64,000 bases of DNA. Source: Microcystis sp. BLCC-F210 (GTDB lineage: Bacteria; Cyanobacteriota; Cyanobacteriia; Cyanobacteriales; Microcystaceae). Under the pieces are notes generated by a model. The model had not been told where the DNA came from and did not search any database. It saw nothing but the letters and a program-made list of their open reading frames with translations. The DNA is taken from NCBI RefSeq assembly GCF_042134685.1, contig NZ_CP169647.1, positions 1,550,585 through 1,614,584 on the forward strand, read 5' to 3'. Position numbers and translations under genes: made by a program. Below, piece by piece: positions 1,966-62,621 of the stretch; within the stretch, counting starts at the first letter, position 1, and every line of letters starts with the position of its first letter.

Positions 1966-2226
1966 TCACATTAGATCAAAATGACGGCAGATAACACCGC
2001 AAACAGCCGCTAAAGCGGTAATTCCTAAAGCTGTACCGATGTCTTGTCCTTGATTGACAGCAAAGGAAGTGACGATTCCCGCACCTAAACCGGCTGTGAT
2101 TGCCGCTCCGAGAAAATCTTTATCTGAGTTTTTATACATAGAGATAAGGCCAAATTTCCACAAAATCGTGTTTTTCACCTTATCATCCTCTTTTGAGCAA
2201 CTAATCACCCGGGGGCGGAATTGCAA
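1966..2226 (-). CDS. Small glycine-zipper membrane protein (hypothetical)
   Basis: C-terminal GAAITAGLGAGIVTSFAVNQGQDIGTALGITALAAVCGV is a Gly-zipper-like TM pair. The start codon is uncertain. Confidence 0.25.
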   Translation of the reverse strand: MQFRPRVISCSKEDDKVKNTILWKFGLISMYKNSDKDFLGAAITAGLGAGIVTSFAVNQGQDIGTALGITALAAVCGVICRHFDLM

Positions 2227-2346
2227 TCAAGCTTTAGATTTAGCCACGTTTCTTAACATTAAGTCGGGTCAGATAGATAGGGGGTAAAATCGATTAAATT
2301 AGCTAAAATCTCTTTTTATGGCTTTTTAACCCTGATTATCTCCCTT

Positions 2347-2661
2347 TTGCTAATACTGAGTTTTGTTAATGCCAGCCAGGCCCAATCGGATACGGCGGTA
2401 AGATCGGAGTTAATTAGTCTCCGCAATCGCGTCGAGCGCCTTGAAAGTCAAGTCCGAGGAATAACCATCCGCGGGGAAAATGCCGATCCCATTCCCCAAC
2501 GGCGATCGGGAACGGGTATAGTAAATGGGGAAGTAGTCGGGGAAACTGACCCACTGTTCCAGCGTTTGGCCACTTTAGTAATTGAATTAAAGGAAGATTT
2601 AAAAAAGCTGGAGCAACGGGTGCAAATCTTAGAAAAAGAAACCGTTAGCCAGAAATCGTAG
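2347..2661 (+). CDS. Secreted coiled-coil protein (hypothetical)
   Basis: Signal-peptide-like N-terminus (LILSFVNASQA/QS), then heptad-rich LISLRNRVERLESQV ... LKEDLKKLEQRVQILEKE. Confidence 0.35.
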   Translation: MLILSFVNASQAQSDTAVRSELISLRNRVERLESQVRGITIRGENADPIPQRRSGTGIVNGEVVGETDPLFQRLATLVIELKEDLKKLEQRVQILEKETVSQKS

Positions 2662-2692
2662 TCAATTGATGCTATAACGATCGAAAGTTAAA

Positions 2693-4516
2693 TTGATTTC
2701 AACTATGCAGTTAATTGATTATGTAATTGTGCTGCTCTATCTGGCAGGAACCCTAATAATCGGGATTATAGCCGAGAAAAAAGCTTCTCAAGGTCTAGAA
2801 TCCTACTTTTTAGGTAATCGCAATTTGCCTTGGTGGATGTTAGGGGTGTCGGGAATGGCAGCTAACACCGATTTAGCGGGAACTATGGTCATTTCTGCCC
2901 TAATTTACGCTGTCGGCCCCAAAGGACTATTTATCGAAATCCGCGGCGGTGTCGTCCTAATTATGGCCTTTCTCATGGCTTTTATGGGCAAATGGAATCG
3001 CCGGGCCCAAGTTATGACCATGGCGGAATGGATGAAATTTCGCTTTGGACCGGGAAAACAGGGAAATTTTGCCCGAATTATTAGTGCCGTCGCCACTCTC
3101 TTATTCTCTATCGGTGCGATGAGTTATTTCTCCGTTGCGGGGGGGAAATTTTTAGGGCAGTTTTTGGGTATGGATGATCGTCTTGCTTCGGTGATATTAA
3201 TTCTTTTAACCTTAATTTATACGGTGGCCAGTGGTTTTTATGGTGGGGTAATTACCGATTTATTTCAAGGGTTTCTGATTTTTGTGGCGGTAATTTATGT
3301 ATCGACAGTGGCCTTTTTTACCGTTAATCTTCCCGATAGTTTCACGGTAGCAATTCCGGGGGCAGCAGAGCCAAAAACTTGGAATTTAAGCGACTGGTCT
3401 AGTATTTTCCCCTCCCTGACGTTGGATTTACCCGGAGATTATGCCATCTTTAATTTGTTTGGTGGGGTGATTTTCTTTTATTTAGTTAAAACCATCATCG
3501 AAGGTTGCAGCGGCAGCGGTGGTTATATGTTACAACGATATCTAGCCGCCAAAAGCGATCGAGATGCCGGTTTATTATCTTTATTCTGGATTATTTTGCT
3601 TTCTTTCCGTTGGCCTCTAGTCACAGCTTTTGCGGTTTTAGGTATTCACTACGGTTTAACTGAAGGCACGATCACAGATCCAGAAAGAATTCTGGCCACA
3701 GTGATTACTCAATATATTCCTGTGGGGATGAAAGGGTTATTAATTGCTTCTTTTTTAGCGGCAGCTATGTCCACTTTTAACGCAGTTATTAACGCTAGTG
3801 CTGCCTATTGGGTAAAAGATATCTATCAAGCTTTTTTGAAACCGAATGCGGGAGAACAGGAGTTAGTTTTTCAAGGTCGTTTAGCCTCGATTTTTGTGGT
3901 CGCAATTGGCTTAGTTTTGAGTTTTAATATTGAAAATGTCAATGATATTTGGGGTTGGTTAACCACGGGATTAGGGGTGGGATTAGCAGTTCCTCTCCTA
4001 TTACGTTGGTATTGGTGGCGCTTTAATGGTTATGGTTTTGCTGTGGGAACTTTAGCGGGAATGATTGCGGCTATTGCCTCACAAGCGATAATTTTACCTT
4101 TCTTTCGTCACAGTCAATATCAGGAAATTATTCTCTTTCTTGTGCCGAGTTTGTTCGCTTTAGCTGGCTGTGTTATCGCTACTTTGTTAACTCCTCCCAC
4201 CGATAGTTTAGTCATGGAAAATTTCTATAATGTTACCCGACCCTTTGGCTTTTGGGGAGAAGTCCGTCACAGTGTTAAACCTAACCTACAGGCAAAAATT
4301 AAAGCGGAAAATCAACGGGATATCATCGCCGCTTTTCTCACTGTTCCTTGGCAATTAGTCCTGTTTATGATGGGGATTGTTTTAATCATCAAGCAGTGGC
4401 AAAGTTTGAAGATTTTGGCTTTGGTTTTTCTTTTGCTTTCCATCGGTCTCTATTTTACTTGGTATCGACATTTATCTAAGGAAATTACCGTCACTAAAGA
4501 CCGAGATTTAGGTTAG
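2693..4516 (+). CDS. Sodium:solute symporter (SSS family) permease
   Basis: 607 aa polytopic protein. N-terminus MQLIDYVIVLLYLAGTLIIGIIAEKKA ... YFLGNRNLPWWMLGVSGMAANTDLAGT is typical of SSF transporters. Confidence 0.8.
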   Translation: MISTMQLIDYVIVLLYLAGTLIIGIIAEKKASQGLESYFLGNRNLPWWMLGVSGMAANTDLAGTMVISALIYAVGPKGLFIEIRGGVVLIMAFLMAFMGKWNRRAQVMTMAEWMKFRFGPGKQGNFARIISAVATLLFSIGAMSYFSVAGGKFLGQFLGMDDRLASVILILLTLIYTVASGFYGGVITDLFQGFLIFVAVIYVSTVAFFTVNLPDSFTVAIPGAAEPKTWNLSDWSSIFPSLTLDLPGDYAIFNLFGGVIFFYLVKTIIEGCSGSGGYMLQRYLAAKSDRDAGLLSLFWIILLSFRWPLVTAFAVLGIHYGLTEGTITDPERILATVITQYIPVGMKGLLIASFLAAAMSTFNAVINASAAYWVKDIYQAFLKPNAGEQELVFQGRLASIFVVAIGLVLSFNIENVNDIWGWLTTGLGVGLAVPLLLRWYWWRFNGYGFAVGTLAGMIAAIASQAIILPFFRHSQYQEIILFLVPSLFALAGCVIATLLTPPTDSLVMENFYNVTRPFGFWGEVRHSVKPNLQAKIKAENQRDIIAAFLTVPWQLVLFMMGIVLIIKQWQSLKILALVFLLLSIGLYFTWYRHLSKEITVTKDRDLG

Positions 4517-7070: not shown

Positions 7071-7614
7071 ATGGATTTGGCAAATCGTTTGCTAATAATG
7101 CCTCATTACTTGAGTTGTTTAATTTCATATTTCTTTTTCGGCTCTTCTCGGCTTTGTGTGATAATTTTTGTTTATGGAATCGTGAAATGCTTACTGGACA
7201 AAACTTTTAAGACTATTTTACGGATATTCTATCAGTATAGACCTCGTTTTCACACAGAAACCAGAAGAGCCCTTTTTCTTCTATGGTGTATTACTTGCTG
7301 TTGTTGGGTTATTTGCACGGGAATTAGTTGCCCAAGTCTTTCTAAATTGGCATATACTTATAGTAATATTTTTTCAGTTTCTTTTACAGATGTTTTTAAA
7401 CCAATCATCACAGGAACAACTTCTGATGACTTTGGCCAGAGACATTGCATTATTGGCTTTCGGAATGTTACCAAGTATAGTGCCTACCAGTAATTTTCAA
7501 GAGGGTCTTCTCGTTTTTGTAATTTCGGGATTTTTTATGGTCGGAATCCTTGACTCAGAAGTAGTTAAGAGTTGTGGTACTTTCGAGCAATTGCTTGAAA
7601 TGTTTGGTCGCTAA
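7071..7614 (+). other. ORF(s) behind a duplicated ~75-bp leader: possible degenerate paralog or frameshifted small membrane-protein gene
   Basis: Positions 7003-7080 and 7636-7708 share the leader ...tttactcaatcttgctgatactt...ttagctggagaattttttatggatt(t/g)gg. The frame in register with the leader (7071..7493) gives a Cys-rich, low-complexity product. The overlapping frame 7390..7614 is more hydrophobic and protein-like. Confidence 0.25.
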
Positions 7615-11107: not shown

Positions 11108-11394
11108 GGTAAAATGAAGAGAAACGAGCAATCCATACAGAAAAATGTCTTATAGCCTAGACTTGAGAAAAAAAGTGATCGATTATGTAGAGAATGGGGG
11201 AAGCATAACCAAAGCCGCCGCTCTATTTAATATAGGAAGAGCGACGATATATAGATGGCTAGGTAGGGAAAAACTGGAAGCAACAAAGGTAAAACACCGT
11301 CAGAGAAAGCTGGACTGGAAAGCACTGTCAAAAGATGTCCAAGAAAATCCCGAGGCAAGATTAAGAGACAGAGCCGAGAAGTTTGGGAGCATCT

Positions 11395-11566
11395 CACTTA
11401 CGCGATGAGTAATTATACTTAGCCTAAAAGCCACTCTTAATCGTGTCTTGGAACGAAATAGAGGCTTTTAAAGACCGCGTACATGGAGAATTAAAACAAG
11501 AATTACCCTCGAAAAGCCTATTTTTCTACTAAGTATTTATGCTTATTGCAAAGGTGAGATGCTCCC
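11395..11566. mobile_element. MITE (family G: TIR GGGAGCATCTCAC, 8-bp TSD) inside the IS630 transposase gene
   Basis: 13-bp perfect TIRs GGGAGCATCTCAC/GTGAGATGCTCCC. Flanking direct repeat AGAAGTTT (11387-11394 and 11567-11574). A near-identical copy is at 42274..42455. Confidence 0.7.
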
Positions 11567-11887
11567 AGAAGTTTGGAGTGAGACCAAGTGCCATTTGCTA
11601 TGCCTTAAAAAAAATGAAAATTACCAGAAAAAAGAAGGAACTTCGTTATAGAGAAAGAAACCGAGAAGAAAGAATGAAATACTACAGAGTGCTGAGAGAA
11701 TTGATTAAAAAATATGGAAGTGAAAGCCTTGTATTTATTGATGAGTCAGGGTTTGAAGAATTTCAAGCCTGCCTTTATGCTTGGTCAAAAAAAGGTAAGA
11801 AAGTATTGGGAGATAGACAAGGAAAACGAGGAAAAAGAGAAAACCTTGTCGCCGGGAGAAGAAAGGGAAAAAAAGACTTTATTGCAC

Positions 11888-13752
11888 CAGCAATTCTCAT
11901 TTTGAAATAAATAGAGCATTAACCCCGATTTTGGCAGGGAAAATATAGTACGAAGCAACTATTTTCTAGAAGAGGCGAACAATAAAAAAAACAATTGGCT
12001 AGACAAATTAAGTATAAATACTCAAGCAATCAAAGAGGTTGGCTGAGAACGAACGGGGTTAAATCAGGAAGATAGTTCTGTTTTTAGAATAGGGAATTCA
12101 AGGGAAATAAAAATTTATAATTATTGTCAGCTAAGGTAAAATGGGTGAGATAGAAATCCACCAGCACGTCAAATTATTCCAAGATGGCTCAAAAAGCGGC
12201 AACCCTAGAAATTTCGGAATTAATGCAATTTTTCCATCAAGAATTAGATGATTTACCCGATGAGAGGAAACCTGGAAATAATAGAAAATATGAGATAAAA
12301 GATGCCGTGATGGCTGCATTTTCAGTCTTTTTTACTCAGTCGCCGTCTTTTTTAGACCATTAACGTTTAATGAAAAGCAATAAGGGAAAAGATAATGCTG
12401 AAAGTTTATTTTCAATTAAAAAAATTCCTGGGGATAATCAAATAAGAAATTTGTTAGATCCAGTGCCAGCATCTAATATCTCTAGGACTTTTCAAAAAGT
12501 CTATGAATGGTTAAAAGAAAAGGGAGTTTTGAAAAAGTTTCTCTACTTAGATGGAGAAATATTAGTGGCGTTAGATGGCACAGAATATTTCTCATCCAAG
12601 AAAATTAATTGCCCTCATTGTAACTGTCGTAATCATCGAAATGGAACTACAACTTATTTTCATGGCTGTGTCACACCGATAGTAGTTTCTCCTAAGCAAA
12701 AACAAGTAATTAATTTAGAGCCAGAATTCATTAAAAAACAAGATGGATATCAAAAACAAGACTGTGAAAATGCGGCCGTTAAAAGATGGTTAAATAGGAA
12801 TCATAAAAATAAGTATGGTTATCCTGTAACTCTTTTAGGAGACGACTTATATTCTCACGAACCTGTTTGTGAATTAGCGATAAAACAAGGTTATAATTTT
12901 ATTTTTGTTTGTTTGGAAACGTCGCATAAAACTTTATATGAATGGCTAGAATTTTTAGAAAAAAGTGGCGAAGTTAGGACCGTTGAAAAGAAACAATGGG
13001 ATGGACGAAAAAATCTAATTTATCGTTATCGTTATGCTTCTAGAGTTCCCTTAAGAGAGGGGGACTCAAGTCTCGAAGTTAATTGGTGTGAAGTGACTGT
13101 TATTAATGAAAAAACCCAGAAAACTATCTACCAAAATAATTGGATAACTAATCATAAAATCAAGGAAAATAATGTCGAAGAAATTGTCAAAGCTGGACGT
13201 AGCAGATGGAAAGTTGAAAATGAAGGCAATAACGTTCTTAAAAATCACGGTTATAATTTAGAGCATAACTTTGGTCACGGTCAGAATCATTTGTGCGAGT
13301 TCTTATTGTCTTTGAATTTACTAGCTTTTTTATTTCATACCGTGTTGGATTTAGTTAATTACACCTATCAAAAGATTCGTGAGCTATTAGTAACTAGGAC
13401 TTCTTTCTTTAATGATATTCGTACCCTATTAAAATTTATTTGGTTTAAGAATTGGTCGGAATTTTCTCATTTATTCTAACCGAATATGTCCCATTTAAAA
13501 AAGTAGATTCTAGTTGAAAATGTCAGAACTCTTGAAGGAGAAAAAGAAAATTGTTTATAAAAAAACTAAAAATTTTGTTAGAATTTCATCCAGATTTATG
13601 AGTTGAAATCGATTTTTCGTGGACAAAGTTCTTAAAACCTGTATATCTCCAGCGTTGGATGATAATTATCTGTCAAAAAATAATGCTTCTACACAAGTTC
13701 TCTATTTAAATAAGAGAATTTTATCTGATTTTTTTCAAAATGAGAATTGCTG
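11888..13752 (+). mobile_element. CA-ended IS (IS4-family-like), copy 1; transposase inactivated by a nonsense codon
   Basis: 20-bp TIRs CAGCAATTCTCATTTTGAAA / TTTCAAAATGAGAATTGCTG. 9-bp flanking repeat TTAT(T/C)GCAC. The 5' leader of ~295 bp is shared with the copies at 16517 and 18293..20353. Confidence 0.65.
12184..13479 (+). pseudogene. Transposase of the CA-ended IS with a premature TAA (CAA>TAA at 12361) relative to the intact copy 18528..19862
   Basis: Residues 1-59 (MAQKAATLEISEL...SFLDH) are read 12184..12360, then a stop. The remainder (12370..13479) matches the intact copy colinearly. Confidence 0.6.
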
Positions 13753-16516: not shown

Positions 16517-16992
16517 CAGCAATTCTCATTTTGAAATAAATAGAGCATTAACCCCGATTTTGGCAGGGAAAATATAGTACGAAGCAACTATTTTCTAGAA
16601 GAGGCGAACAATAAAAAAAACAATTGGCTAGACAAATTAAGTATAAATACCCAAGCAATCAAAGAGGTTGGCTGAGAACGAACAGGGTTAAATCAGGAAG
16701 ATAGTTCTGTTTTTAGAATAGAGAATTCAAGGGAAATAAAAATTTATAATTATTGTCAGCTAAGGTAAAATGGGTGAGATAGAAATCCACCAGCACGTCA
16801 AATTATTCCAAGATGGTTCAAAAAGCGGCAACCCTAGAAATTTCGGAATTAACGCAATTTTTACATCAAGAATTAGATGATTTACCCGATGAGAGGAAAC
16901 CTGGAAATAATAGAAAATATGAGATAAAAGATGCCGTGATGGCTGCATTTTCAGTCTTTTTTACTCAGTCGCCGTCTTTTTTAGACCATCAG
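16517..16992 (+). mobile_element. CA-ended IS, copy 2 (5' fragment only), truncated by the ISAs1-family insertion
   Basis: Begins with CAGCAATTCTCATTTTGAAA and encodes transposase residues 1-60 (16813..). Homology stops at ...FLDHQ, where the ISAs1-family sequence begins. Confidence 0.6.
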
Positions 16993-18292
16993 GGTAAGAG
17001 CATCTCAATTAGGCTTGACAAAAGGCTTTCAGCACAGCCATCATATAGTTATTATCCATGGCCGCCCGTTTACTTTTTTGTGCCAGACTACGTCGGTAAG
17101 TGGATTCCTGGTTAAGAGCGTTAAGTGCTACTCGTCTCAAGAAGGCTCCCATTACGAGGGCTGTGGCCCGAGCGAATCCGACATTTATCTTCATTAAAAG
17201 TAACATCTAAAATCCAATGAGCCTGATTTTCAATGCCCCAATGTTTACGAATAGCATTACCTATTTTTTGAGCATCAGCAGGGAGAGAACTGAGATAGAA
17301 TTGGACTTCACAAGTGGTTTTATTCCAAAGATGACGAACTCGTTTAACCATGATAATACTTTGAAGTCCTTGCCATTGAGCCTGTTGATAAAGACCGCCG
17401 AAAGCTTCTAAGGGTACAGCCCAACACCAACATTTTTCGAGACGATGATGACCCTTTTCCAGACGGTAATCATAACTAAATTGAATACCATCAAATTGAT
17501 GTGCTTGAGCTTGCTCAAACCAGTTTTTGACCTGAGTATAAAGAGTCGGATGATTAGCTTTAAGGGCGACAACGTAGTTAGCTTTTTTGGCTTGAATATG
17601 ATTAATAATCGCCGTTTGAGTTCCCATAGCATCAAGGGTGATAATTGCCCCTTGAAGGTCTAATAGTTCTAATAAAGCGGGAATAGCGGTAATCTCATTG
17701 GATTTATCTTCCACCTTGACTTGTCCTAAAACTAATTTCTGCTCCCCCGCCCAAGCCGTCACTAAATGCAAGGCTTTAATTCCTTGATTACGGTCGTAAG
17801 AACCTCTGAGACTTTTCCCATCTATGGGAACTATTTCCCCCGAAAGAGAACCGATTAAATGGGGCAGCCATTGAGACAAAACTTTGGTCAAAGCTTCCGG
17901 GTTAATCCGTTCAAAAACCCGCCGAAAAGTATCATCAGAAGGAATGCCATTAGGTAATTCTAAAAACTCAGATAACCAAGACTGCTTACTGAGTCCATAA
18001 TTTTCCATATCTTCCCAACCTTCGGCTCCTGCTATAACTGCTAAAATAGCAATGACTAAAATATCGGTTAATAAATGTTTTTGGGTTCGGGACACTCTCG
18101 GGTCAGGAATATCTTGAAGATAAGTCAATAAACTAGCTTGAATTTCATTGATTGATGTTAAAGGAAGCTCAGGTTTTAGTTGAGCTTTATTTCCGGTGGG
18201 AAGAACGGGAGCAAAACCTTTCCCCATGAGCTATTTCCTCGCTAATTTTCATGAACAACAGTGAGACTAAGGCTAATTATAAATTATACAGA
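16993..18292 (-). mobile_element. ISAs1-family insertion sequence (boundaries approximate)
   Basis: It lies between the broken IS copy 2 and the right TIR of IS copy 3. Imperfect terminal repeats fall around caattaggcttgac (17015) / gactaaggctaatt (18256). Confidence 0.5.
17121..18227 (-). CDS. ISAs1-family DDE transposase
   Basis: 368 aa. The C-terminal KHWGIENQAHWILDVTFNEDKCRIR is the hallmark of the ISAs1 / H-repeat transposase family. Confidence 0.75.
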   Translation of the reverse strand: MGKGFAPVLPTGNKAQLKPELPLTSINEIQASLLTYLQDIPDPRVSRTQKHLLTDILVIAILAVIAGAEGWEDMENYGLSKQSWLSEFLELPNGIPSDDTFRRVFERINPEALTKVLSQWLPHLIGSLSGEIVPIDGKSLRGSYDRNQGIKALHLVTAWAGEQKLVLGQVKVEDKSNEITAIPALLELLDLQGAIITLDAMGTQTAIINHIQAKKANYVVALKANHPTLYTQVKNWFEQAQAHQFDGIQFSYDYRLEKGHHRLEKCWCWAVPLEAFGGLYQQAQWQGLQSIIMVKRVRHLWNKTTCEVQFYLSSLPADAQKIGNAIRKHWGIENQAHWILDVTFNEDKCRIRSGHSPRNGSLLETSST

Positions 18293-18527
18293 CAGCAATT
18301 CTCATTTTGAAAAAAATCAGATAAAATTCTCTTATTTAAATAAAGAACTTGTGTAGAAGCATTATTTTTTGACAGATAATTATCATCCAACGCTGGAGAT
18401 ATACAGGTTTTAAGAACTTTGTCCACGAAAAATCGATTTCAACTCATAAATCTGGATGAAATTCTAACAAAATTTTTAGTTTTTTTATAAACAATTTTCT
18501 TTTTCTCCTTCAAGAGTTCTGACATTT

Positions 18528-19862
18528 TTAACTAGAATTTACTTTTTTAAATGGGACATATTCGGTTAGAATAAATGAGAAAAATTCCGACCAATTCTTA
18601 AACCAAATAAATTTTAATAGGGTACGAATATCATTAAAGAAAGAAGTCCGAGTTACTAATAGCTCACGAATCTTTTGATAGGTGTAATTAACTAAATCCA
18701 ACACGGTATGAAATAAAAAAGCTAGTAAATTCAAAGACAATAAGAACTCGCACAAATGATTCTGACCGTGACCAAAGTTATGCTCTAAATTATAACCGTG
18801 ATTTTTAAGAACGTTATTGCCTTCATTTTCAACTTTCCATCTGCTACGTCCAGCTTTGACAATTTCTTCGACATTATTTTCCGTGATTTTATGATTAGTT
18901 ATCCAATTATTTTGGTAGATAGTTTTCTGGGTTTTTTCATTAATAACAGTCACTTCACACCAATTAACTTCGAGACTTGAGTCCCCCTCTCTTAAGGGAA
19001 CTCTAGAAGCATAACGATAACGATAAATTAGATTTTTTCGTCCATCCCATTGTTTCTTTTCAACGGTCCTAACTTCGCCACTTTTTTCTAAAAATTCTAG
19101 CCATTCATATAAAGTTTTATGCGACGTTTCCAAACAAACAAAAATAAAATTATAACCTTGTTTTACCGCTAATTTACAAACAGGTTCGTGAGAATATAAG
19201 TCGTCTCCTAAAAGAGTTACAGGATAACCATACTTATTTTTATGATTCCTATTTAACCATCTTTTAACGGCCGCATTTTCACAGTCTTGTTTTTGATGTC
19301 CATCTTGTTTTTTAATGAATTCTGGCTCTAAATTAATTACTTGTTTTTGCTTAGGAGAAACTACTATCGGTGTGACACAGCCATGAAAATAAGTTGTAGT
19401 TCCATTTCGATGATTACGACAGTTACAATGAGGGCAATTAATTTTCTTGGATGAGAAATATTCTGTGCCATCTAACGCCACTAATATTTCTCCATCTAAG
19501 TAGAGAAACTTTTTCAAAACTCCCTTTTCTTTTAACCATTCATAGACTTTTTGAAAAGTCCTAGAGATATTAGATGCTGGCACTGGATCTAGCAAATTTC
19601 TTATTTGATTATCCCCAGGAATTTTTTTAATTGAAAATAAACTTTCAGCATTATCTTTTCCCTTATTGCTTTTCATTAAACGTTGATGGTCTAAAAAAGA
19701 CGGCGACTGAGTAAAAAAGACTGAAAATGCAGCCATCACGGCATCTTTTATCTCATATTTTCTATTATTTCCAGGTTTCCTCTCATCGGGTAAATCATCT
19801 AATTCTTGATGTAAAAATTGCGTTAATTCCGAAATTTCTAGGGTTGCCGCTTTTTGAGCCAT
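18528..19862 (-). CDS. DDE transposase of the CA-ended IS (IS4-superfamily-like; exact family unverified)
   Basis: 444 aa. CxxC..C cluster KINCPHCNCRNH; C-terminal RSRWKVENEGNNVLKNHGYNLEHNFGHG (R-W-x-E-N...K, as in IS4/IS5-type DDE enzymes). Confidence 0.6.
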   Translation of the reverse strand: MAQKAATLEISELTQFLHQELDDLPDERKPGNNRKYEIKDAVMAAFSVFFTQSPSFLDHQRLMKSNKGKDNAESLFSIKKIPGDNQIRNLLDPVPASNISRTFQKVYEWLKEKGVLKKFLYLDGEILVALDGTEYFSSKKINCPHCNCRNHRNGTTTYFHGCVTPIVVSPKQKQVINLEPEFIKKQDGHQKQDCENAAVKRWLNRNHKNKYGYPVTLLGDDLYSHEPVCKLAVKQGYNFIFVCLETSHKTLYEWLEFLEKSGEVRTVEKKQWDGRKNLIYRYRYASRVPLREGDSSLEVNWCEVTVINEKTQKTIYQNNWITNHKITENNVEEIVKAGRSRWKVENEGNNVLKNHGYNLEHNFGHGQNHLCEFLLSLNLLAFLFHTVLDLVNYTYQKIRELLVTRTSFFNDIRTLLKFIWFKNWSEFFSFILTEYVPFKKVNSS

Positions 19863-20055
19863 CTTGGAATAATTTGACGTGCTGGTGGATTTCTATCTCA
19901 CCCATTTTACCTTAGCTGACAATAATTATAAATTTTTATTTCCCTTGAATTCTCTATTCTAAAAACAGAACTATCTTCCTGATTTAACCCTGTTCGTTCT
20001 CAGCCAACCTCTTTGATTGCTTGGGTATTTATACTTAATTTGTCTAGCCAATTGT

Positions 20056-20241
20056 GGCTCTTCGGGACTTGGTATGGTTCGATATGGGAGCATAAATCGA
20101 CTAAATCCTTATCTGGCAAGAGACTTAATTGATTAGTTCGCTCTAGATCAAAAATAATTGACAAAAATCACTAAATGCCTTTCTATATAAGGGTTCCATC
20201 CCTTATAACCCCTGTCCATTGCATAACAGAAACCCAAGAAC
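20056..20241. mobile_element. MITE family W (TIR GG(C/T)TCTTCG, 8-bp TSD), copy inside IS copy 3
   Basis: Flanked by the direct repeat CCAATTGT (20048-55 and 20242-49). Removing it restores the sequence seen in IS copy 1. Other copies at 42809..42995 and 52197..52383. Confidence 0.6.
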
Positions 20242-20385
20242 CCCAATTGTTTTTTTTATTGTTCGCCTCTTCTAGAAAATAGTTGCTTCGTACTATATTT
20301 TCCTTGCCAAAATCGGGGTTAATGCTCTATTTATTTCAAAATGAGAATTGCTGAGAAAAAAGCCGAATACTGACTTCTAACCCCA

Positions 20386-37568: not shown

Positions 37569-39083
37569 ATGCCAGATCAGCCAATCTCGATCGCCCAATA
37601 CTACCACGAGCGGACCAAATACGACCCCCAGACGATCGCCTCAAAAAGTAAAGGTCTTGATTGGAGTCAACAACCCTATCCCTTCAAAGAATACAAAATC
37701 GGTCAGACTTTCGATCTCAAACCCTACCTCTCCCGTCAAGCAGTTCCCCAAAAAGGAGACTTTTGGCGACGTATATCGCGAATTTTGGGCTGTAGCTATG
37801 GTTTAACTGCCAAAATCGCCACTATGGGTAGTCCCTTGTACCTGCGTTCCGCACCCTCTGCTGGTGGATTATACCCCGCCGAGGTTTATCTGATCTCCCG
37901 TGGTACGGAATTTTTACCCGCCGGTCTCTACAGTTATCAAGGTCAAAGTCACTCGCTGCTTTTATTCTGGGAAAGTGATGTCTGGACGAACCTACAATCT
38001 GCTTGTTTCTGGAATCCTGTTTTAGAAAATACCGATATCGCTTTAGTTACCAGTGCCATTTTTTATCGATCCGCTTGGCGCTACGAAGATCGAGCTTATC
38101 GGCGTATTTTCCTAGATACAGGGCATTTATTGGGCAATATTGAGCTATCAGCCTCGATTAATGACTATCGCGCTCATTTAATCGGTGGTTTTAACGATAG
38201 TCAGATGAATGAATTGCTTTATCTCGATTCCGAGAAAGAAAGTGTCATGACGGTGATTCCTTTGGCAGATCTGCTCAATATCCAGCAAAATCTCCCCCCT
38301 AGTACCACGGCACTCCCTTCGGCAACCACGACTCTTTATCCCAAAATTGCCGAGGGAGAATTATTAAACTCTCTACACCGAGCGACTATCATAGCCACAG
38401 ATGAGAAGATAGAAGCAAATATTACCCCCTCTAATTGGGAAGATAAATATAATTTTCCTTTTTGTCTAAAAGTTTCCGTGACATCCCGTCCCGTCAATTG
38501 GGGGGAAGATTTAATCGATCTGGAAAGTACGATGCTTAAACGCAGATCTACCCGCGCTTATAGTGGTGCTAGTCTCAGTTTAGACGAATTGCGAGCGCTG
38601 CTGCATTTTACCTATCAACCCCAAGATTATACCGACCAAAATCTCGATCCCAATCCCGATTATTTTGATCTAGACTTATTGGAAACTTTTATCGCTGTTT
38701 CGGCAGTAACCGGATTAGAGGAAGGCTGTTATTATTATGCTCCTAAAGCTCAAGAATTGCGGCAAATTCGCTTTAAAAATTTCCGGCAAGAGTTACATTA
38801 TCTCTGTTTAGGTCAGGATTTGGGACGGGATGCGGCTGCTGTGGTTTTTCATACGGCGGATCTGTCAAAAGCAGTGGCTAAATACGGCGATCGAGTTTAT
38901 CGTTATCTTCATGCAGATGCGGGTCATTTGGGACAGAGATTAAATTTAGCGGCTATTCATCTGGGGTTAGGGGTTAGTGGTATCGGTGGTTTTTTTGATG
39001 ATCAAGTTAATGAAGTGTTAGGAATTCCCTCCGATGAAGCAGTTATCTATATCACTACTTTAGGCCGACCGAAGGTTTTTTAG
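37569..39083 (+). CDS. SagB-type dehydrogenase / tandem nitroreductase-fold protein
   Basis: 504 aa. N-terminal YYHERTKYDP and LRSAPSAGGLYPAEVYL (SagB-type signature). The second half has KRRSTRAYSG (nitroreductase RRSxR motif). Confidence 0.6.
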   Translation: MPDQPISIAQYYHERTKYDPQTIASKSKGLDWSQQPYPFKEYKIGQTFDLKPYLSRQAVPQKGDFWRRISRILGCSYGLTAKIATMGSPLYLRSAPSAGGLYPAEVYLISRGTEFLPAGLYSYQGQSHSLLLFWESDVWTNLQSACFWNPVLENTDIALVTSAIFYRSAWRYEDRAYRRIFLDTGHLLGNIELSASINDYRAHLIGGFNDSQMNELLYLDSEKESVMTVIPLADLLNIQQNLPPSTTALPSATTTLYPKIAEGELLNSLHRATIIATDEKIEANITPSNWEDKYNFPFCLKVSVTSRPVNWGEDLIDLESTMLKRRSTRAYSGASLSLDELRALLHFTYQPQDYTDQNLDPNPDYFDLDLLETFIAVSAVTGLEEGCYYYAPKAQELRQIRFKNFRQELHYLCLGQDLGRDAAAVVFHTADLSKAVAKYGDRVYRYLHADAGHLGQRLNLAAIHLGLGVSGIGGFFDDQVNEVLGIPSDEAVIYITTLGRPKVF

Positions 39084-39177
39084 GGTGAGTTTGAACCACT
39101 GAAGGGATGACAAGGAGGCTGAGGTCGTAGTAATCTGTACCTTGACGGATGCACTTTCTCGCTGGGACGTATTTTGT

Positions 39178-40095
39178 TTAAAGGTTAATCCAACTACGCA
39201 CCATTTGTCGAGGTTTTCCTGAATTTTTAAAAGCGGTTCTATTGTGGCATAAAAAGCGATTATTAACGTAAAATATATCACCTTTTTTCATTTTGAAGCG
39301 GACTGTATTTTCTGGTTCTGAAAAAAAGTTGTCGATGATGTCAAGTGTTTTTGTGATAGCTTCTGGTTGCGCTATTTCTAGTTTGGAGTAAGCAACTTCA
39401 ATCCAGTACCGCATATAACGAAAAACCAGACCCCGAGAATCTGTTGAGAATAAGGGGAAATTATTATTTTGAATAGCTTCTTGAGAATTAATCTCTCCCG
39501 GGGTAATCACATCCCGCGCCAAAGGTTCGTAGAGACAGGGAACTAGGTCTGTATGGTTTTGCCAGAAATATTGATACAAATTGGCGGCGTTTACTACCAG
39601 GGAATCTCCTCCCTCATCCGCGGCAGCAAGACAGAGTAAGCCAACAATATCAGGGAAGTAGTTTTTGTCTGTACTATCGGTATGATAGCCAGTTTCTGCA
39701 TTCGTCATCGAAACGGGTATAGCTTCTTTAGTGTAATCCATTCCTCGATCGATTACATCAAAAAAATAGCCATAGCGGTGGTTTAACAGTCCAAAAATGC
39801 AAGAAATAAAAGCATAAATTAACCGCATTTCTGTTTCTGTTAATGCTGAATCTAATCGAAAAAAAATTATTCCTGGTTCCTGGAGCAATTTCTCACGAAA
39901 CGGTAGAAACAAATCAAGATTTTTATTTACTATTTCCCGTCCTATTTCGTTGGGTTTTTCAAGCCATCTCTGATTGCTTGTTTTTAGTAAATCCAAGACT
40001 AATGATTTGGGTAAACTAAAAAATAGTTGAGAAGGATCGGGCAATTTTTTCCAAGTCAGTAATGAAATATTAGAATCGGAAATTGGTATAATCAT
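39178..40095 (-). CDS. Fe(II)/2-oxoglutarate-dependent dioxygenase, TauD/TfdA-like
   Basis: 305 aa. HxD (GYHTDSTD) and a distal His (RFLCHNRTAF) about 145 residues apart, as in TauD. Confidence 0.55.
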   Translation of the reverse strand: MIIPISDSNISLLTWKKLPDPSQLFFSLPKSLVLDLLKTSNQRWLEKPNEIGREIVNKNLDLFLPFREKLLQEPGIIFFRLDSALTETEMRLIYAFISCIFGLLNHRYGYFFDVIDRGMDYTKEAIPVSMTNAETGYHTDSTDKNYFPDIVGLLCLAAADEGGDSLVVNAANLYQYFWQNHTDLVPCLYEPLARDVITPGEINSQEAIQNNNFPLFSTDSRGLVFRYMRYWIEVAYSKLEIAQPEAITKTLDIIDNFFSEPENTVRFKMKKGDIFYVNNRFLCHNRTAFKNSGKPRQMVRSWINL

Positions 40096-40853
40096 TTTTG
40101 AATTTTGAAGGCAACGTGAAGGGGAAGGTCAATAAGCGGAGTAAAAAATTCTGGGTCTAGTTCTAAATGTTTCTGATTAATTTTTAGTTCATAAACTTCT
40201 GGCATTTTTGTGAATGTTGCTAAACGAAGAGATGTGAAGTAATCTTCCATAGTTTTATGAACACATTGCACGGCGACGGCTTTTCTATCTCTACGCCAAA
40301 TCTCACCAGGGAATAATTGATCGCGTCCAGAAAAATAGCCAGCTTCCGGTTTAAAATAAAAGGGAAACTTATCTTTTTTCAGAAAAGGTAAAGAGGGATG
40401 GGGGACAGCGAACAGGAAATACCCACCCAACTTTAAAAGTTGGTAGGCTTTCTGCATCGTGCTAATAGTTTCTGAAACATTTAAGTAGTTGAACAGGAAC
40501 ATAGCCAGAACTAAATCGTATTGTTCGGACTCAGTGACCAGAAAATCACGAATATCACCAGTTTCATAAGAAGCATTAGTAATCTGATACTCGTTTTTTT
40601 GAATTAAGGCCTGCTCGATCATTTGCGATGAAATGTCAATCCCATGAACATATTGAGCGCCTCGGTTAATTAACTCTCTTCCTACATAACCTTCCCCACA
40701 GCCTATATCTAATATATTCTTGTTGACAATCGGTTCACATAAATCAATGACAAACGGACGCGCAGAGTAATCAGAAAGCAAAATCGGTTCTACTCGTTTC
40801 CAGTCTGCTGCGCTTTCGTCGTAAAGTTTTTTGGTTTCTTGTGTTGCTTTCAT
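40092..40853 (-). CDS. Class I SAM-dependent methyltransferase
   Basis: Motif I ILDIGCGEGYVG; acidic loop HGIDIS. It overlaps the downstream gene by 4 bp (ATGA). Confidence 0.7.
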   Translation of the reverse strand: MKATQETKKLYDESAADWKRVEPILLSDYSARPFVIDLCEPIVNKNILDIGCGEGYVGRELINRGAQYVHGIDISSQMIEQALIQKNEYQITNASYETGDIRDFLVTESEQYDLVLAMFLFNYLNVSETISTMQKAYQLLKLGGYFLFAVPHPSLPFLKKDKFPFYFKPEAGYFSGRDQLFPGEIWRRDRKAVAVQCVHKTMEDYFTSLRLATFTKMPEVYELKINQKHLELDPEFFTPLIDLPLHVAFKIQK

Positions 40854-40879
40854 ACCTATCTAACGGGATAAAATTTGCA

Positions 40880-42581
40880 CTAATTTTGTTTTAGTCTAGC
40901 ACTGTGTAAGTAATTACCCATAAAACTTTTGCCAGTTAATCCGAAATCAGCTATCGCCAAGAAAATTAGCTCTTCTTCTCCTAAGTTCACACATTGATGC
41001 ACACACCAACGGGGAATAACAGCAAAAGTACCCGGTTCGACTTCGTTTTCGTATTGATCAACAATAACCTTTCCTTGACCCTGAAGAAATACAAATACGG
41101 TTTCATGTGCGTGTTTGTGCATTTCATTCGCCTTTCCTGGCTTGACTATAACTAGGCGTGCATCTAAAACTTCTAGAGCAAATGGCAGCCGAAATACGTT
41201 AAAATCAATATTAAGTTTATCAACCTTGTTGTTGTACAAAGCTTCTAAGTTGCTGGCGCTGATTGTTGAAATAAGCTCTTTACCTTCTCGGACATAAGTT
41301 AAGCTTTTTTGTTGATTAATTTTTTCGGTCAATGCTCCTAGTCGCAGCGTTTGAAAATCATGGTAAAGTTGTGATGCAAGCCTTAATATTGTTGGAGAGC
41401 ATTGGCATTCACCAGATGGATCCACAAGCCAATCTAACAAGTTTATAACTTCTTCCCTGTGCTTTTCCCTTTGCATCCCGTATAGCAAAAGTGAACTCAA
41501 TCCGGGTAGTAGTTTTTCCACTGGAACAGTAGATAAGTCTGCCGTCAATCCAATCCGCGCATCATTGATTTGATGCAATAAAAGTTCCCGTTCCTGATTA
41601 GACAGCTTTTTGCTTTTAATTATTTTAGTAAAAAGCGTAACAATCCTGAGTTGGTCTGATGATGTCAAAGATTTATCTAGTGCCAACGCACGTTCATACA
41701 TATTGTCCCAGTAAGCAGCACGTAGATTTAAGGCTTTTAACATTCCTTTCCGTAATTCCAGAACAGCCTGTTCGCTTTCACTGGCTAATTCCTTAGCAAT
41801 CTCAACTAAAGTTAAGCTGTGTTCATCCTCCACTTCTGTGTGTAAAGGAAAAAATACATATTGCTGCAAGGATAATGATGTATGGTTTTTAATCGCTTTA
41901 ATAATGTGTTTGTAGATAAATTTAACAATAGATTCAGTCCCTAAACCTATCGCTCCAATAGCTTCGAGTGAACTTCCATTCTGGAGCAGTGACAAGAATG
42001 ATTCACGCCAGATTTTTGCTTCAACACAAGGCGTTTGCGTGCTATCTACTCCCATAGCTTCTTGAAAACGCTTGAATAACTTTGGGTGAGGGATTTCCTG
42101 TACCCACTCATCCTTAATACCTAATTTACGGATTGCTTCCAGATCTTGATCGTATAGATGTCCGTTTTCTTCAGCTAAGTTCTTGAGCAGATGATTTCGA
42201 TGAGCGGGATTTTCTAGCTTTGATATTACTGCTGTTAAATAGCGGGAAAACCACTCACTATAAGCTCCGTATTGGGAGCATCTCACTTACGCGATGAGTA
42301 ATTATACTTAGCCTAAAAGCCACTCTTAATCGTGTCTTGGAACGAAATAGAGGCTTTTAAAGACCGCGTATATGGAGAATTAAAACAAGAATTACCCTCG
42401 AAAAGCCTATTTTTCTACTAAGTATTTATGCTTATTGCAAAGGTGAGATGCTCCCTCCGTATTGACTGGCAAAATCTTTCAAAACTTCATCAATATGTTG
42501 AAATTCTCCTTTTTCTAAAGCCAGTAAATACGGGTGATTAATTGCTCGATGGTTTAGTGCTTCCTTGATTAAATTTTCCAT
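40880..42581 (-). pseudogene. Heme-oxygenase-like di-iron (HDO; CADD/PqqC-like) domain fused to a C-terminal 3-His cupin; the gene is split by a MITE after codon ~42
   Basis: Joined N-terminus: MENLIKEALNHRAINHPYLLALEKGEFQHIDEVLKDFASQYG | AYSEWFSRYLTAVISKL...LLKNLAEENGH...LHTEVEDEHSL (HDO helix-bundle carboxylate/His ligands). Cupin motifs MHKHAHETVFVFLQGQG and PGTFAVIPRWCVHQCVN. The MITE lies at 42274..42455. Confidence 0.6.
42274..42455. mobile_element. MITE family G (TIR GGGAGCATCTCAC), copy inside the HDO-cupin gene
   Basis: 13-bp TIRs. 8-bp TSD TCCGTATT (42266-73 and 42456-63). About 95% identical to 11395..11566. Confidence 0.7.
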
Positions 42582-42808: not shown

Positions 42809-42995
42809 GGTTCTTCGGTTTGTATTATGCAATGGACGGGGGGTATAAGGGATGGATCCCTTATATAGAAAGGCATTTGGCGATTTTTGTCAATTGCTTT
42901 TGATCTAGAGCTAACTAATCATTTAAGTCTTTTGCTAGATAAGGATTTAGTCGATTTATGCCCCCCTATCGAACCATACCAAGTAACGAACAACC
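42809..42995 (-). mobile_element. MITE family W, copy C (inverted)
   Basis: 8-bp TSD GGTTAAAT (42801-08 and 42996-43003). It contains track ORF 42887..43102, which is therefore rejected. Confidence 0.6.
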
Positions 42996-52196: not shown

Positions 52197-52383
52197 GGCT
52201 CTTCGTTACTTGTTATGGTTCGATAGGGTGGCATAAATCGACTAAATCCTTATCTGGCAAGGGATTTAATTGATTAGTTCGCTCTAGATCAAAAATAATT
52301 GACAAAAATCGCTAAATGCCTTTCTATATAAGGGTTCCATCCCTTATAATCTCCGTGCATTGCATAACACAAAACGAAGAACC
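52197..52383 (+). mobile_element. MITE family W, copy B
   Basis: 8-bp TSD GTGATTAT (52189-96 and 52384-91). Confidence 0.6.
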
Positions 52384-61857: not shown

Positions 61858-62105
61858 GAGTCAATAGTTAGTGTATCGGTAAAAATGACTTTCTAGAGTA
61901 TCTCGCTCAGATGAATAGTCCTTAGTGCGTTACCCTGCTAAAACTTGAAGGCTAACTACATATTATAGGTCAACTTTCTGTATAAAACTCTGCAGCGTAA
62001 CGATATGGCTCTTCTGGTTTCTGTGTGGAAACGGGGTCTATACTGATAGTTTGTTCAGCAAAATAGTCCTAAAAGTCTTTCCAGGTAAATATTTCACGAT
62101 TCTAA

Positions 62106-62210
62106 GTACCTAAGCAAAATTAATTACACATATCTAACCCCCTCTTGCCTTTTGCCTCTTGCCTTTTGCCTATCTTTACTAGGAAATTAATTTTGCACGA
62201 CTACTTATAA
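62106..62210. repeat. Dispersed repeat family K, inverted copy
   Basis: Reverse complement matches 15175..15288 at about 93% identity. Confidence 0.5.
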
Positions 62211-62621
62211 GCAAAAATTATCACACAAAGTCGAGAAGAGCCACGATATGGGTCAACTTTCGGTATAACAATCCATTTAGGCGCAATCGCCGGAACTTTT
62301 CCCTATATCACCCCCAAAAGCCTGTTAGCCAGATTAGCATATTGCCAAAAACCTTGTTTAACTAAATTCCTGACAATTTAGGCTCATTCTAGCGATAATT
62401 CCTCTGTCTGACCACACCCCTTGACAAAAATTTATAATTATTCGACCTTTAGCGATCGCTATCAGGGGATAGTTGTTTTTTGTTACAGCAGTGGGGAGAA
62501 GGGAGCGGGTTTTTCAAGTGGGATTGGCAGTTAATCATACTATTAAAAACCGATTCAGTATAATGAACCCGTTATGCCGTGTCCCTACAGATAGAATTCA
62601 ACGGCTCTAGCATTCGGCGCG

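Follow-up and report, generated by a model that had tools for sequence, protein, structure and literature searches.

A 182-bp MITE that shares its termini with ISKra4-type elements splits an HDO-cupin gene and an IS630 transposase gene in Microcystis

In the window, by which we mean the whole 64-kb stretch of Microcystis DNA analysed here, the reading frame of an HDO-cupin gene, a fusion of heme-oxygenase-like and cupin parts, is broken by a 182-bp segment, and a nearly identical segment breaks the gene of an IS630-family transposase. The locus therefore raises the question of what this segment is, how it came to lie within both genes, and which transposase could have moved it. Our comparisons of the sequence with other genomes lead us to conclude that the segment is very probably a MITE with the termini of ISKra4/ISMich2-type ISs, moved in trans by the transposase of such an element and recently inserted into both genes.

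The two copies of the segment are each 182 bp in length and lie in the same orientation. Copy 1 occupies positions 11385..11566, within the IS630 transposase gene, and copy 2 occupies positions 42274..42455, within the HDO-cupin gene; no strand is assigned to the copies or to the TSDs that flank them. Alignment of the two copies together with their flanks showed that they are identical at 181/182 positions without gaps, that the similarity ends precisely at the TIR termini, and that flanking duplications are present at both sites. A preliminary description of this DNA had reported perfect 13-bp TIRs and exact 8-bp flanking repeats, and both are borne out by direct reading and by natural empty sites in other strains. 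The positions that it gave for copy 2 and for the end of copy 1 (11566) were also correct, but copy 1 begins at 11385 and not at 11395, a slip of 10 nt.

The left TIR of copy 2 (42274..42286, plus strand) reads GGGAGCATCTCAC, and the right TIR (42443..42455, minus strand) is its exact reverse complement. Exact occurrences of this 13-mer in the window number four, and these are found solely at the four MITE termini. When up to 2 mismatches were allowed, 5 matches were found against 0.85 expected. The TIR is perfect over 13 bp, an imperfect inverted repeat reaches ~46 nt into the element, and copy 2 folds as a long hairpin (z = -4.5). The element is short and lacks a transposase ORF, and just incidental short ORFs cross the 182 bp. 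A search of Rfam matched no family in and around the MITE. A promoter scan returned one sigma-70-like site within copy 2 that matches at 10/12 positions (42329..42301, minus strand) and faces the truncated HDO-cupin ORF. Sites of this type in the MITE region are not more numerous than in shuffled sequence, and thus we do not claim a read-out promoter for the element.

The insertion in the HDO-cupin gene can be read to the nucleotide. Copy 2 is flanked on the left (42266..42273) and on the right (42456..42463) by TCCGTATT, which on the gene strand is AATACGGA and corresponds to codons 40-42 (QYG). The 5' fragment of the gene (42456..42581, minus strand) holds codons 1-42 in 126 nt and runs 7 codons into the MITE before reaching a stop, which accounts for the ORF at 42432..42581. 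The 3' fragment (40880..42265, minus strand) holds codons 43-503 and the stop codon, with the Haem_oxygenas_2 and Cupin_2 domains. Removal of the MITE and one TSD from the minus strand restored an ORF of 503 aa with both domains. The insertion point lies after codon 42. The proposal that the MITE splits the gene at about this codon, with the frame restored on excision, is thus supported by the 503-aa ORF and also by an empty site found in nature.

This empty site was found at the locus (L102) of an intact M. aeruginosa orthologue, P0001, which is 503 aa in length, aligns to the restored protein at 95% identity without gaps, and stands for a cluster of 434 sequences. P0001 crosses the insertion site uninterrupted (...KDFASQYGAYS...), and its gene order is that of the window: DndE, HDO-cupin, methyltransferase, TauD, nitroreductase. 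The empty site reads CAGTC-AATACGGA-GCTTATAG, with the 8-mer single, versus duplicated in the window. Whether the 182 bp might belong to the gene as part of its own coding sequence was likewise checked against orthologues, and the intact 503-aa P0001 is without them. The truncated ORF of the insertion allele is on record in just two sequencing-run assemblies, in both of which the contig breaks within the MITE. The presence of the truncated ORF in these two assemblies only fits a recent, strain-specific event.

As judged from the reading frames, the HDO-cupin gene, which now consists of a 49-codon stub and a 5'-truncated ORF, is most likely inactivated, because it is split and the remaining long ORF can start only at a GTG within the TIR. 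The start of that ORF (40880..42286) is the GTG at 42286-42284 on the minus strand of the left TIR; its annotated N-terminus had been called an artefact, and the location of the start codon within the TIR confirms this. The first 42 residues are lost by the insertion, and the TENA/THI-4 profile match of the restored protein begins at residue 9. The biosynthetic cluster around the insertion encodes the HDO-cupin protein, a SAM methyltransferase, a TauD-type dioxygenase and a nitroreductase. A probable strain-specific pseudogene at this position, together with an ORF annotation artefact, matters for inferring natural-product capacity from this genome.

Similar evidence was obtained for the second gene. 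The remnant of the IS630-family transposase gene (11145..11887, plus strand) is split by copy 1 and is cut at 11888 by a 1.87-kb IS with the TIR CAGCAATTCTCATTTTGAAA. Copy 1 is flanked by AGAAGTTT on the left (11377..11384) and on the right (11567..11574). When the MITE and one TSD were removed from the plus strand, a continuous IS630 N-terminus was recovered that matches HTH_Tnp_IS630 with E = 9e-47. Among the fetched genome loci we found only fragments that do not span the junction, and the plasmid collection gave a spanning copy. This intact IS630, on plasmid p1FD4 of M. aeruginosa FD4, aligns with the restored sequence as a single block, at 98.6%. Its empty site contains a single AGAAGTTT, and the flanks in the window overlap by exactly those 8 bp. 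The restored N-terminus and the p1FD4 empty site together substantiate the claim that the same MITE splits the IS630 transposase gene.

In order to treat the segment as a MITE we applied a size criterion of <600 bp together with the lack of a transposase ORF. In addition to being short and noncoding, the segment has TIRs, has TSDs with a corresponding empty site, is present in multiple copies in unrelated flanks, and shares its termini with an autonomous type of element. An intron, intein or native stretch of coding sequence is ruled out as the nature of the 182 bp by the TSDs, by both empty sites and by the multi-copy spread.

This spread was surveyed with the terminus of the element. A 22-nt terminus query was scanned against one genome per species, both MITE ends fitting GGGAGCATCTCACYTWYGCRAT, and at least 100 stretches were matched in cyanobacterial genomes. 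Nearly all of the matches listed are from cyanobacteria, namely Microcystis, Cyanothece, Chlorogloea, Nostocales, Acaryochloridaceae, Thermosynechococcaceae, Phormidesmis, Pseudanabaena, Hormoscilla, Gloeocapsa and Geitlerinema. Many of them lie ~100 nt from contig ends, the pattern expected of a high-copy repeat. Paired TIRs define two size classes of element, one of 122-186 bp and one of 1219-1263 bp. Among the short elements (n=31), the TSD is exactly 8 bp in 14 and exactly 9 bp in 6; the long elements with the MITE TIR have TSDs of 8 or 9 bp, the same mix as the short ones.

A search for further copies and for empty sites had been suggested for this element, and both were found: natural empty sites for each of the two insertions, as described above, and copies elsewhere in Microcystis. 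Other genomes of the genus hold at least 7 full 182-bp copies, in addition to many partial copies at contig ends; 182-bp copies are found, for instance, in Microcystis sp. T1-4 and NIES-4325. The 182-bp copies elsewhere in Microcystis are identical to each other and 97% identical to the copies in the window. The window copies have 4 private substitutions in common and differ from one another by 1 nt, which indicates that they are sisters amplified within this lineage. When plasmids were searched with the MITE, a degraded 5' fragment from Anabaena cylindrica PCC 7122 was the sole match.

The exact MITE TIR also bounds the long elements, which are found in many cyanobacteria, Microcystis NIES-843 included. 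These elements encode a protein of ~310-325 aa that matches the NCBIfam model NF033572 (ISKra4-family transposase) at 258 and 250 bits, above the cutoff of 205 bits; no Pfam model matches this transposase. Homologues number more than 2000, many of which are named "ISKra4 family transposase" in cyanobacteria by their source records. Among the best 120 of these, none is named Microcystis. All ends of the partner elements and of the MITE start with GGG, and the TSDs are 8-9 bp. For the ISMich2 group, which belongs to the ISKra4 family, the ISfinder family table lists direct repeats of 8 bp and ends with GGG.

The similarity between the MITE and its partner lies at the ends. The right end of the MITE matches the end of the Microcystis partner IS at 27/28 positions, and its left end has an exact 15-mer in common with the partner. 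Each common terminus leads into a subterminal palindrome of the form AAGYA...TRCTT. The likeness is confined to the terminal 35-40 bp, and no similarity to the Microcystis partner IS could be detected over the inner ~100 bp of the MITE. Since the inner part is unrelated, the MITE is not a simple internal-deletion derivative of this partner. Within the 64-kb window no ISKra4 transposase was found (best tblastn E = 0.7), which suggests that the MITE depends on a transposase supplied in trans.

The partner elements also resemble the ISMich2 group in their coding layout. In three lineages of the partner IS, the main ORF is preceded by a short ORF that extends into a T-run. For the element at locus L043 and for that of NIES-843 the run is T7 and the main ORF is reached by a -1 shift, and for the element at locus L088 the run is T6 and a +1 shift is needed. 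Within the ISKra4 family, the ISMich2 group is marked by a conserved layout of two ORFs joined by a -1 frameshift (Guérillot et al. 2014, PMC3942029), and the transposases of this group are p-MULT 4 Mutator-like DDE transposases (PMC3942029). The text of the supplement to that paper contains no ISMich2, Microcystis or TIR string. The partners are thus like members of the group in being plain ~1.2-1.26-kb cyanobacterial ISs with an NF033572 transposase, two ORFs and a -1 shift at T7. They differ in the additional +1 shift required by the Microcystis partners, and the window MITE differs in being without a transposase; the placement in the group is by layout and profile, not by an ISMich2 reference sequence.

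Based on these results, we propose how the MITE may have reached its present sites. The MITE end, made up of the 13-bp TIR and the short subterminal palindrome over a total of ~35-40 bp, corresponds to the terminus of a cyanobacterial IS of the ISMich2 type. The DDE transposase of such an IS, made elsewhere in the genome, would bind the MITE ends in trans. The MITE would then move by cut/copy-and-paste, with staggered cleavage of the target generating the 8-bp, and sometimes 9-bp, duplication. In this manner it would recently have entered an IS630 transposase gene and, in a small biosynthetic cluster, codon 42/43 of the HDO-cupin gene, the function of which would presumably have been lost.

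Two other transposase families had to be considered as the source of mobility. The preliminary description suggested the ISAs1-family element of the window (16990..18292, minus strand), which is cut at 18292 by another IS. This element does encode a true ISAs1 transposase (17121..18227; NF033564 at 389 bits, DDE_Tnp_1_assoc and DDE_Tnp_1), it begins with GGG as the MITE does, and the 10-mer GAGCATCTCA on which the suggestion was partly based is indeed common to the MITE and the ISAs1 terminus, at 16998-17007. The ends themselves differ, however. The ISAs1 element begins CAGGGTAAG at both ends, and three intact copies, taken from metagenomes, have the inverted repeats CAGGGTAAGAGCATCTCAATTAGG and CAGGGTAAGCTCATCTAATTTGG. 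The 10-mer is present in one of these repeats only, where its distance from the tip is 4 nt greater than in the MITE, and the other repeat reads ...GCTCATCTAATTTGG. Furthermore, 3/3 of the intact copies have 10-bp TSDs (AATTATCAGG, CTTTTTTAAG and GATAAAAGAC) versus 8 bp for the MITE. The window ISAs1 transposase has no exact match on record, and no copy of the element was present among the fetched genome loci. Because a partner with the exact TIR exists in a different family, ISKra4, and because neither the inverted repeats nor the TSDs agree, we reject the ISAs1 element as part of the MITE system and regard mobilisation by its transposase as highly improbable.

The other family is ISL3. A 187-nt MITE of Microcystis PCC 7806 with the ITR GGCTCTTCG has been attributed to ISL3, generates 8-bp duplications and is active in laboratory cultures (PMC11448079). 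It is a short hairpin-forming element of the same host and of similar size whose targets include genes and through which transcription can proceed, and it is present in three copies in the window, so that the 182-bp element might be taken for a member of the same family. The two are unlike in their termini (GGCTCTTCG, PMC11448079, vs GGGAGCATCTCAC), in the ISL3 parent and in sequence, between which there is no similarity: a search of the window with the 187-nt element recovered only its own three copies and missed the 182-bp MITE. Membership of the 182-bp MITE in the ISL3-mobilised family consequently has almost nothing to recommend it.

A different objection is that the MITE may be a dead relic, with copies that were passively inherited or duplicated by recombination and with no transposase in Microcystis able to move them. 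The state of the partner transposase gene lends this some weight. Of the full-length Microcystis partners examined, 4/4 carry a second, atypical +1 change near TGTGCG-C-GAAGG that is not needed in intact homologues, which leaves the gene doubly frame-shifted. The protein database yields nothing but fragments of 43-94 aa as close Microcystis C-terminal homologues, and several partner copies are interrupted by other ISs. No obviously intact source of transposase in Microcystis was seen among the 4 full-length copies or the close homologues in the protein database. The elements themselves argue for movement. Each window copy has its own exact TSD and an empty site in other strains, and the two copies are nearly identical with private substitutions in common. 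The complete NIES-843 genome holds two identical 1263-bp partner copies with perfect 13-bp TIRs and TSDs of 8 or 9 bp (TTTTAATT and CAATTGGTG). Nested in a partner copy in AP019314 is a 182-bp MITE flanked by a 9-bp TSD of its own, and once the nested MITE is removed this partner copy is 100% identical to those of NIES-843. The 1263-bp partner is therefore 100% identical at three loci in two strains, which indicates that it moved very recently. Taken together, the TSDs, empty sites, near-identity, nesting and identical partners point to recent transposition, and we consider the relic interpretation quite unlikely, with somewhat more in its favor than either the ISAs1 or the ISL3 proposal.

Transposition in trans by an ISKra4/ISMich2-type transposase is accordingly the interpretation that we prefer, and it leaves two options for the enzyme: either an intact transposase source exists that was not seen here, or the partner transposase is expressed in an unusual manner. 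One version of the latter would be that there is no intact copy and that transposase is produced by recoding twice in succession, with shifts of opposite sign, or else functions as a split protein, driving a burst of both IS and MITE copies. We view this version as doubtful, if marginally less so than the relic interpretation.

The element appears to be among those already catalogued for this genus. Kaneko et al. (2008, PMC2779907, Table 1) listed the MITEs of NIES-843 in eight groups, MaeMITEc (182 bp, 44 copies) and MaeMITEb (187 bp, 132 copies) among them. The window MITE is probably MaeMITEc, the match being by length, multi-copy nature and host and not by sequence. The likeness extends to the genus, the length of exactly 182 bp, the multiple copies and the inverted repeats, and the 182-bp copies are nearly identical across Microcystis genomes. 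Similarly, the 187-nt ISL3-associated element is possibly MaeMITEb, which has the same length. No parent IS was assigned to MaeMITEc (PMC2779907). In the searchable literature we found neither the TIR string GGGAGCATCTCAC nor a published link of any Microcystis MITE to ISKra4/ISMich2.

Insertion of a MITE is ordinary for Microcystis, a genus known for its load of ISs and MITEs, and will come as no surprise to the specialist. The connection of a catalogued MITE, probably MaeMITEc, to a likely transposase family, ISKra4/ISMich2, is the only mildly new point. The locus exemplifies how very heavily Microcystis is loaded with mobile elements and how its genes continue to be inactivated, and in practical terms the consequences are real though small. 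Nezha and other cyanobacterial MITEs of Anabaena/Nostoc (listed in PMC3184786) are separately named families in other hosts, set apart from the present element by name and host rather than by sequence. They are similar to it in being non-autonomous cyanobacterial elements with TIRs that show insertion polymorphism between strains.

The presumed parent of the 182-bp MITE, the element that splits the HDO-cupin gene, is represented in Microcystis by a 1263-bp ISKra4/ISMich2-type IS. This element was found at three loci in two strains, two in NIES-843 (L105 and L106, each at 1991..3253 of its locus) and one in AP019314 (L104, 1800..3253), and was 100% identical among them. Despite this identity, its transposase requires two frame changes, one of −1 at a T7 run and a second of +1, and in the protein database the C-terminus of this transposase was represented only by fragments of 43–94 aa. 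The full-length copy in L104 itself carries a nested 182-bp MITE (L104 2783..2964), which is flanked by a 9-bp TSD, TGGTCAGAG. The resulting 191-bp insertion by chance returns the downstream part of the transposase to the frame of the main ORF.

Members of the 182-bp MITE's family were also identified outside Microcystis. A degraded 5′ fragment lies on plasmid pANACY.04 of Anabaena cylindrica PCC 7122 (L001 337..447), where it retains 85.6% identity over 111 nt, with the TIR altered to GGGAGCATCCCAG, and is positioned immediately upstream of a WD40-repeat gene. Its presence there shows that the family predates Microcystis. In a MAG from Gloeocapsa sp., an unpaired GGGAGCATCTCAC end is followed by a gene for a phosphotransferase of the APH family (PF01636, E = 2e-26) and by two tandem 185-bp MITEs of the family (L032 4643..6210), an arrangement that may represent a cargo-carrying cassette bounded by TIRs. 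The family is otherwise cyanobacterial, but one 186-bp TIR-bounded copy comes from a MAG that bears the name Tatlockia sp. (Legionellales; L035 2080..2265); this may reflect either horizontal transfer or a mis-binned contig.

A distinct 187-nt MITE, with termini GGCTCTTCG and GGTTCTTCG, is present in three copies in the window (20056..20242, 42809..42995 and 52197..52383), each flanked by an 8-bp TSD (CCAATTGT, GGTTAAAT and GTGATTAT). This is the ISL3-associated element whose activity was reported in PCC 7806 (PMC11448079), and it is possibly MaeMITEb. Two inverted pairs of the motif GGCTCTTCT, at 7140..7271 (132 bp apart) and 62007..62242 (236 bp apart), could represent additional short MITE derivatives of the ISL3 type, with the number of such motifs across the window being at chance level.

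Between 11 and 22 kb of the window, ISs are nested one within another. A ~1.87-kb IS occurs here three times; its TIR is CAGCAATTCTCATTTTGAAA, and it matches IS4/DDE_Tnp_1 weakly. Copy A (11888..13752) contains an in-frame stop and truncates the IS630 remnant, copy B (16517..16991) is interrupted at 16991/16992 by the ISAs1 element, and copy C (18293..20353) is intact with a 444-aa ORF, yet carries an inserted 187-nt MITE.

The 187-nt copy at 42809..42995 lies between dndE and the split HDO-cupin gene, 228 bp 5′ of the latter's start codon. The small conserved cluster adjoining dndE (37569..42581; also in L102, where the HDO-cupin gene is intact) encodes the HDO-cupin fusion (503 aa), a SAM methyltransferase (253 aa), a TauD-family dioxygenase (305 aa) and, in divergent orientation, a nitroreductase-family protein (504 aa). 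Beyond Microcystis, HDO-cupin homologues match only in the HDO half, which in many of them is joined to a cNMP-binding domain (PF00027) in place of the cupin.
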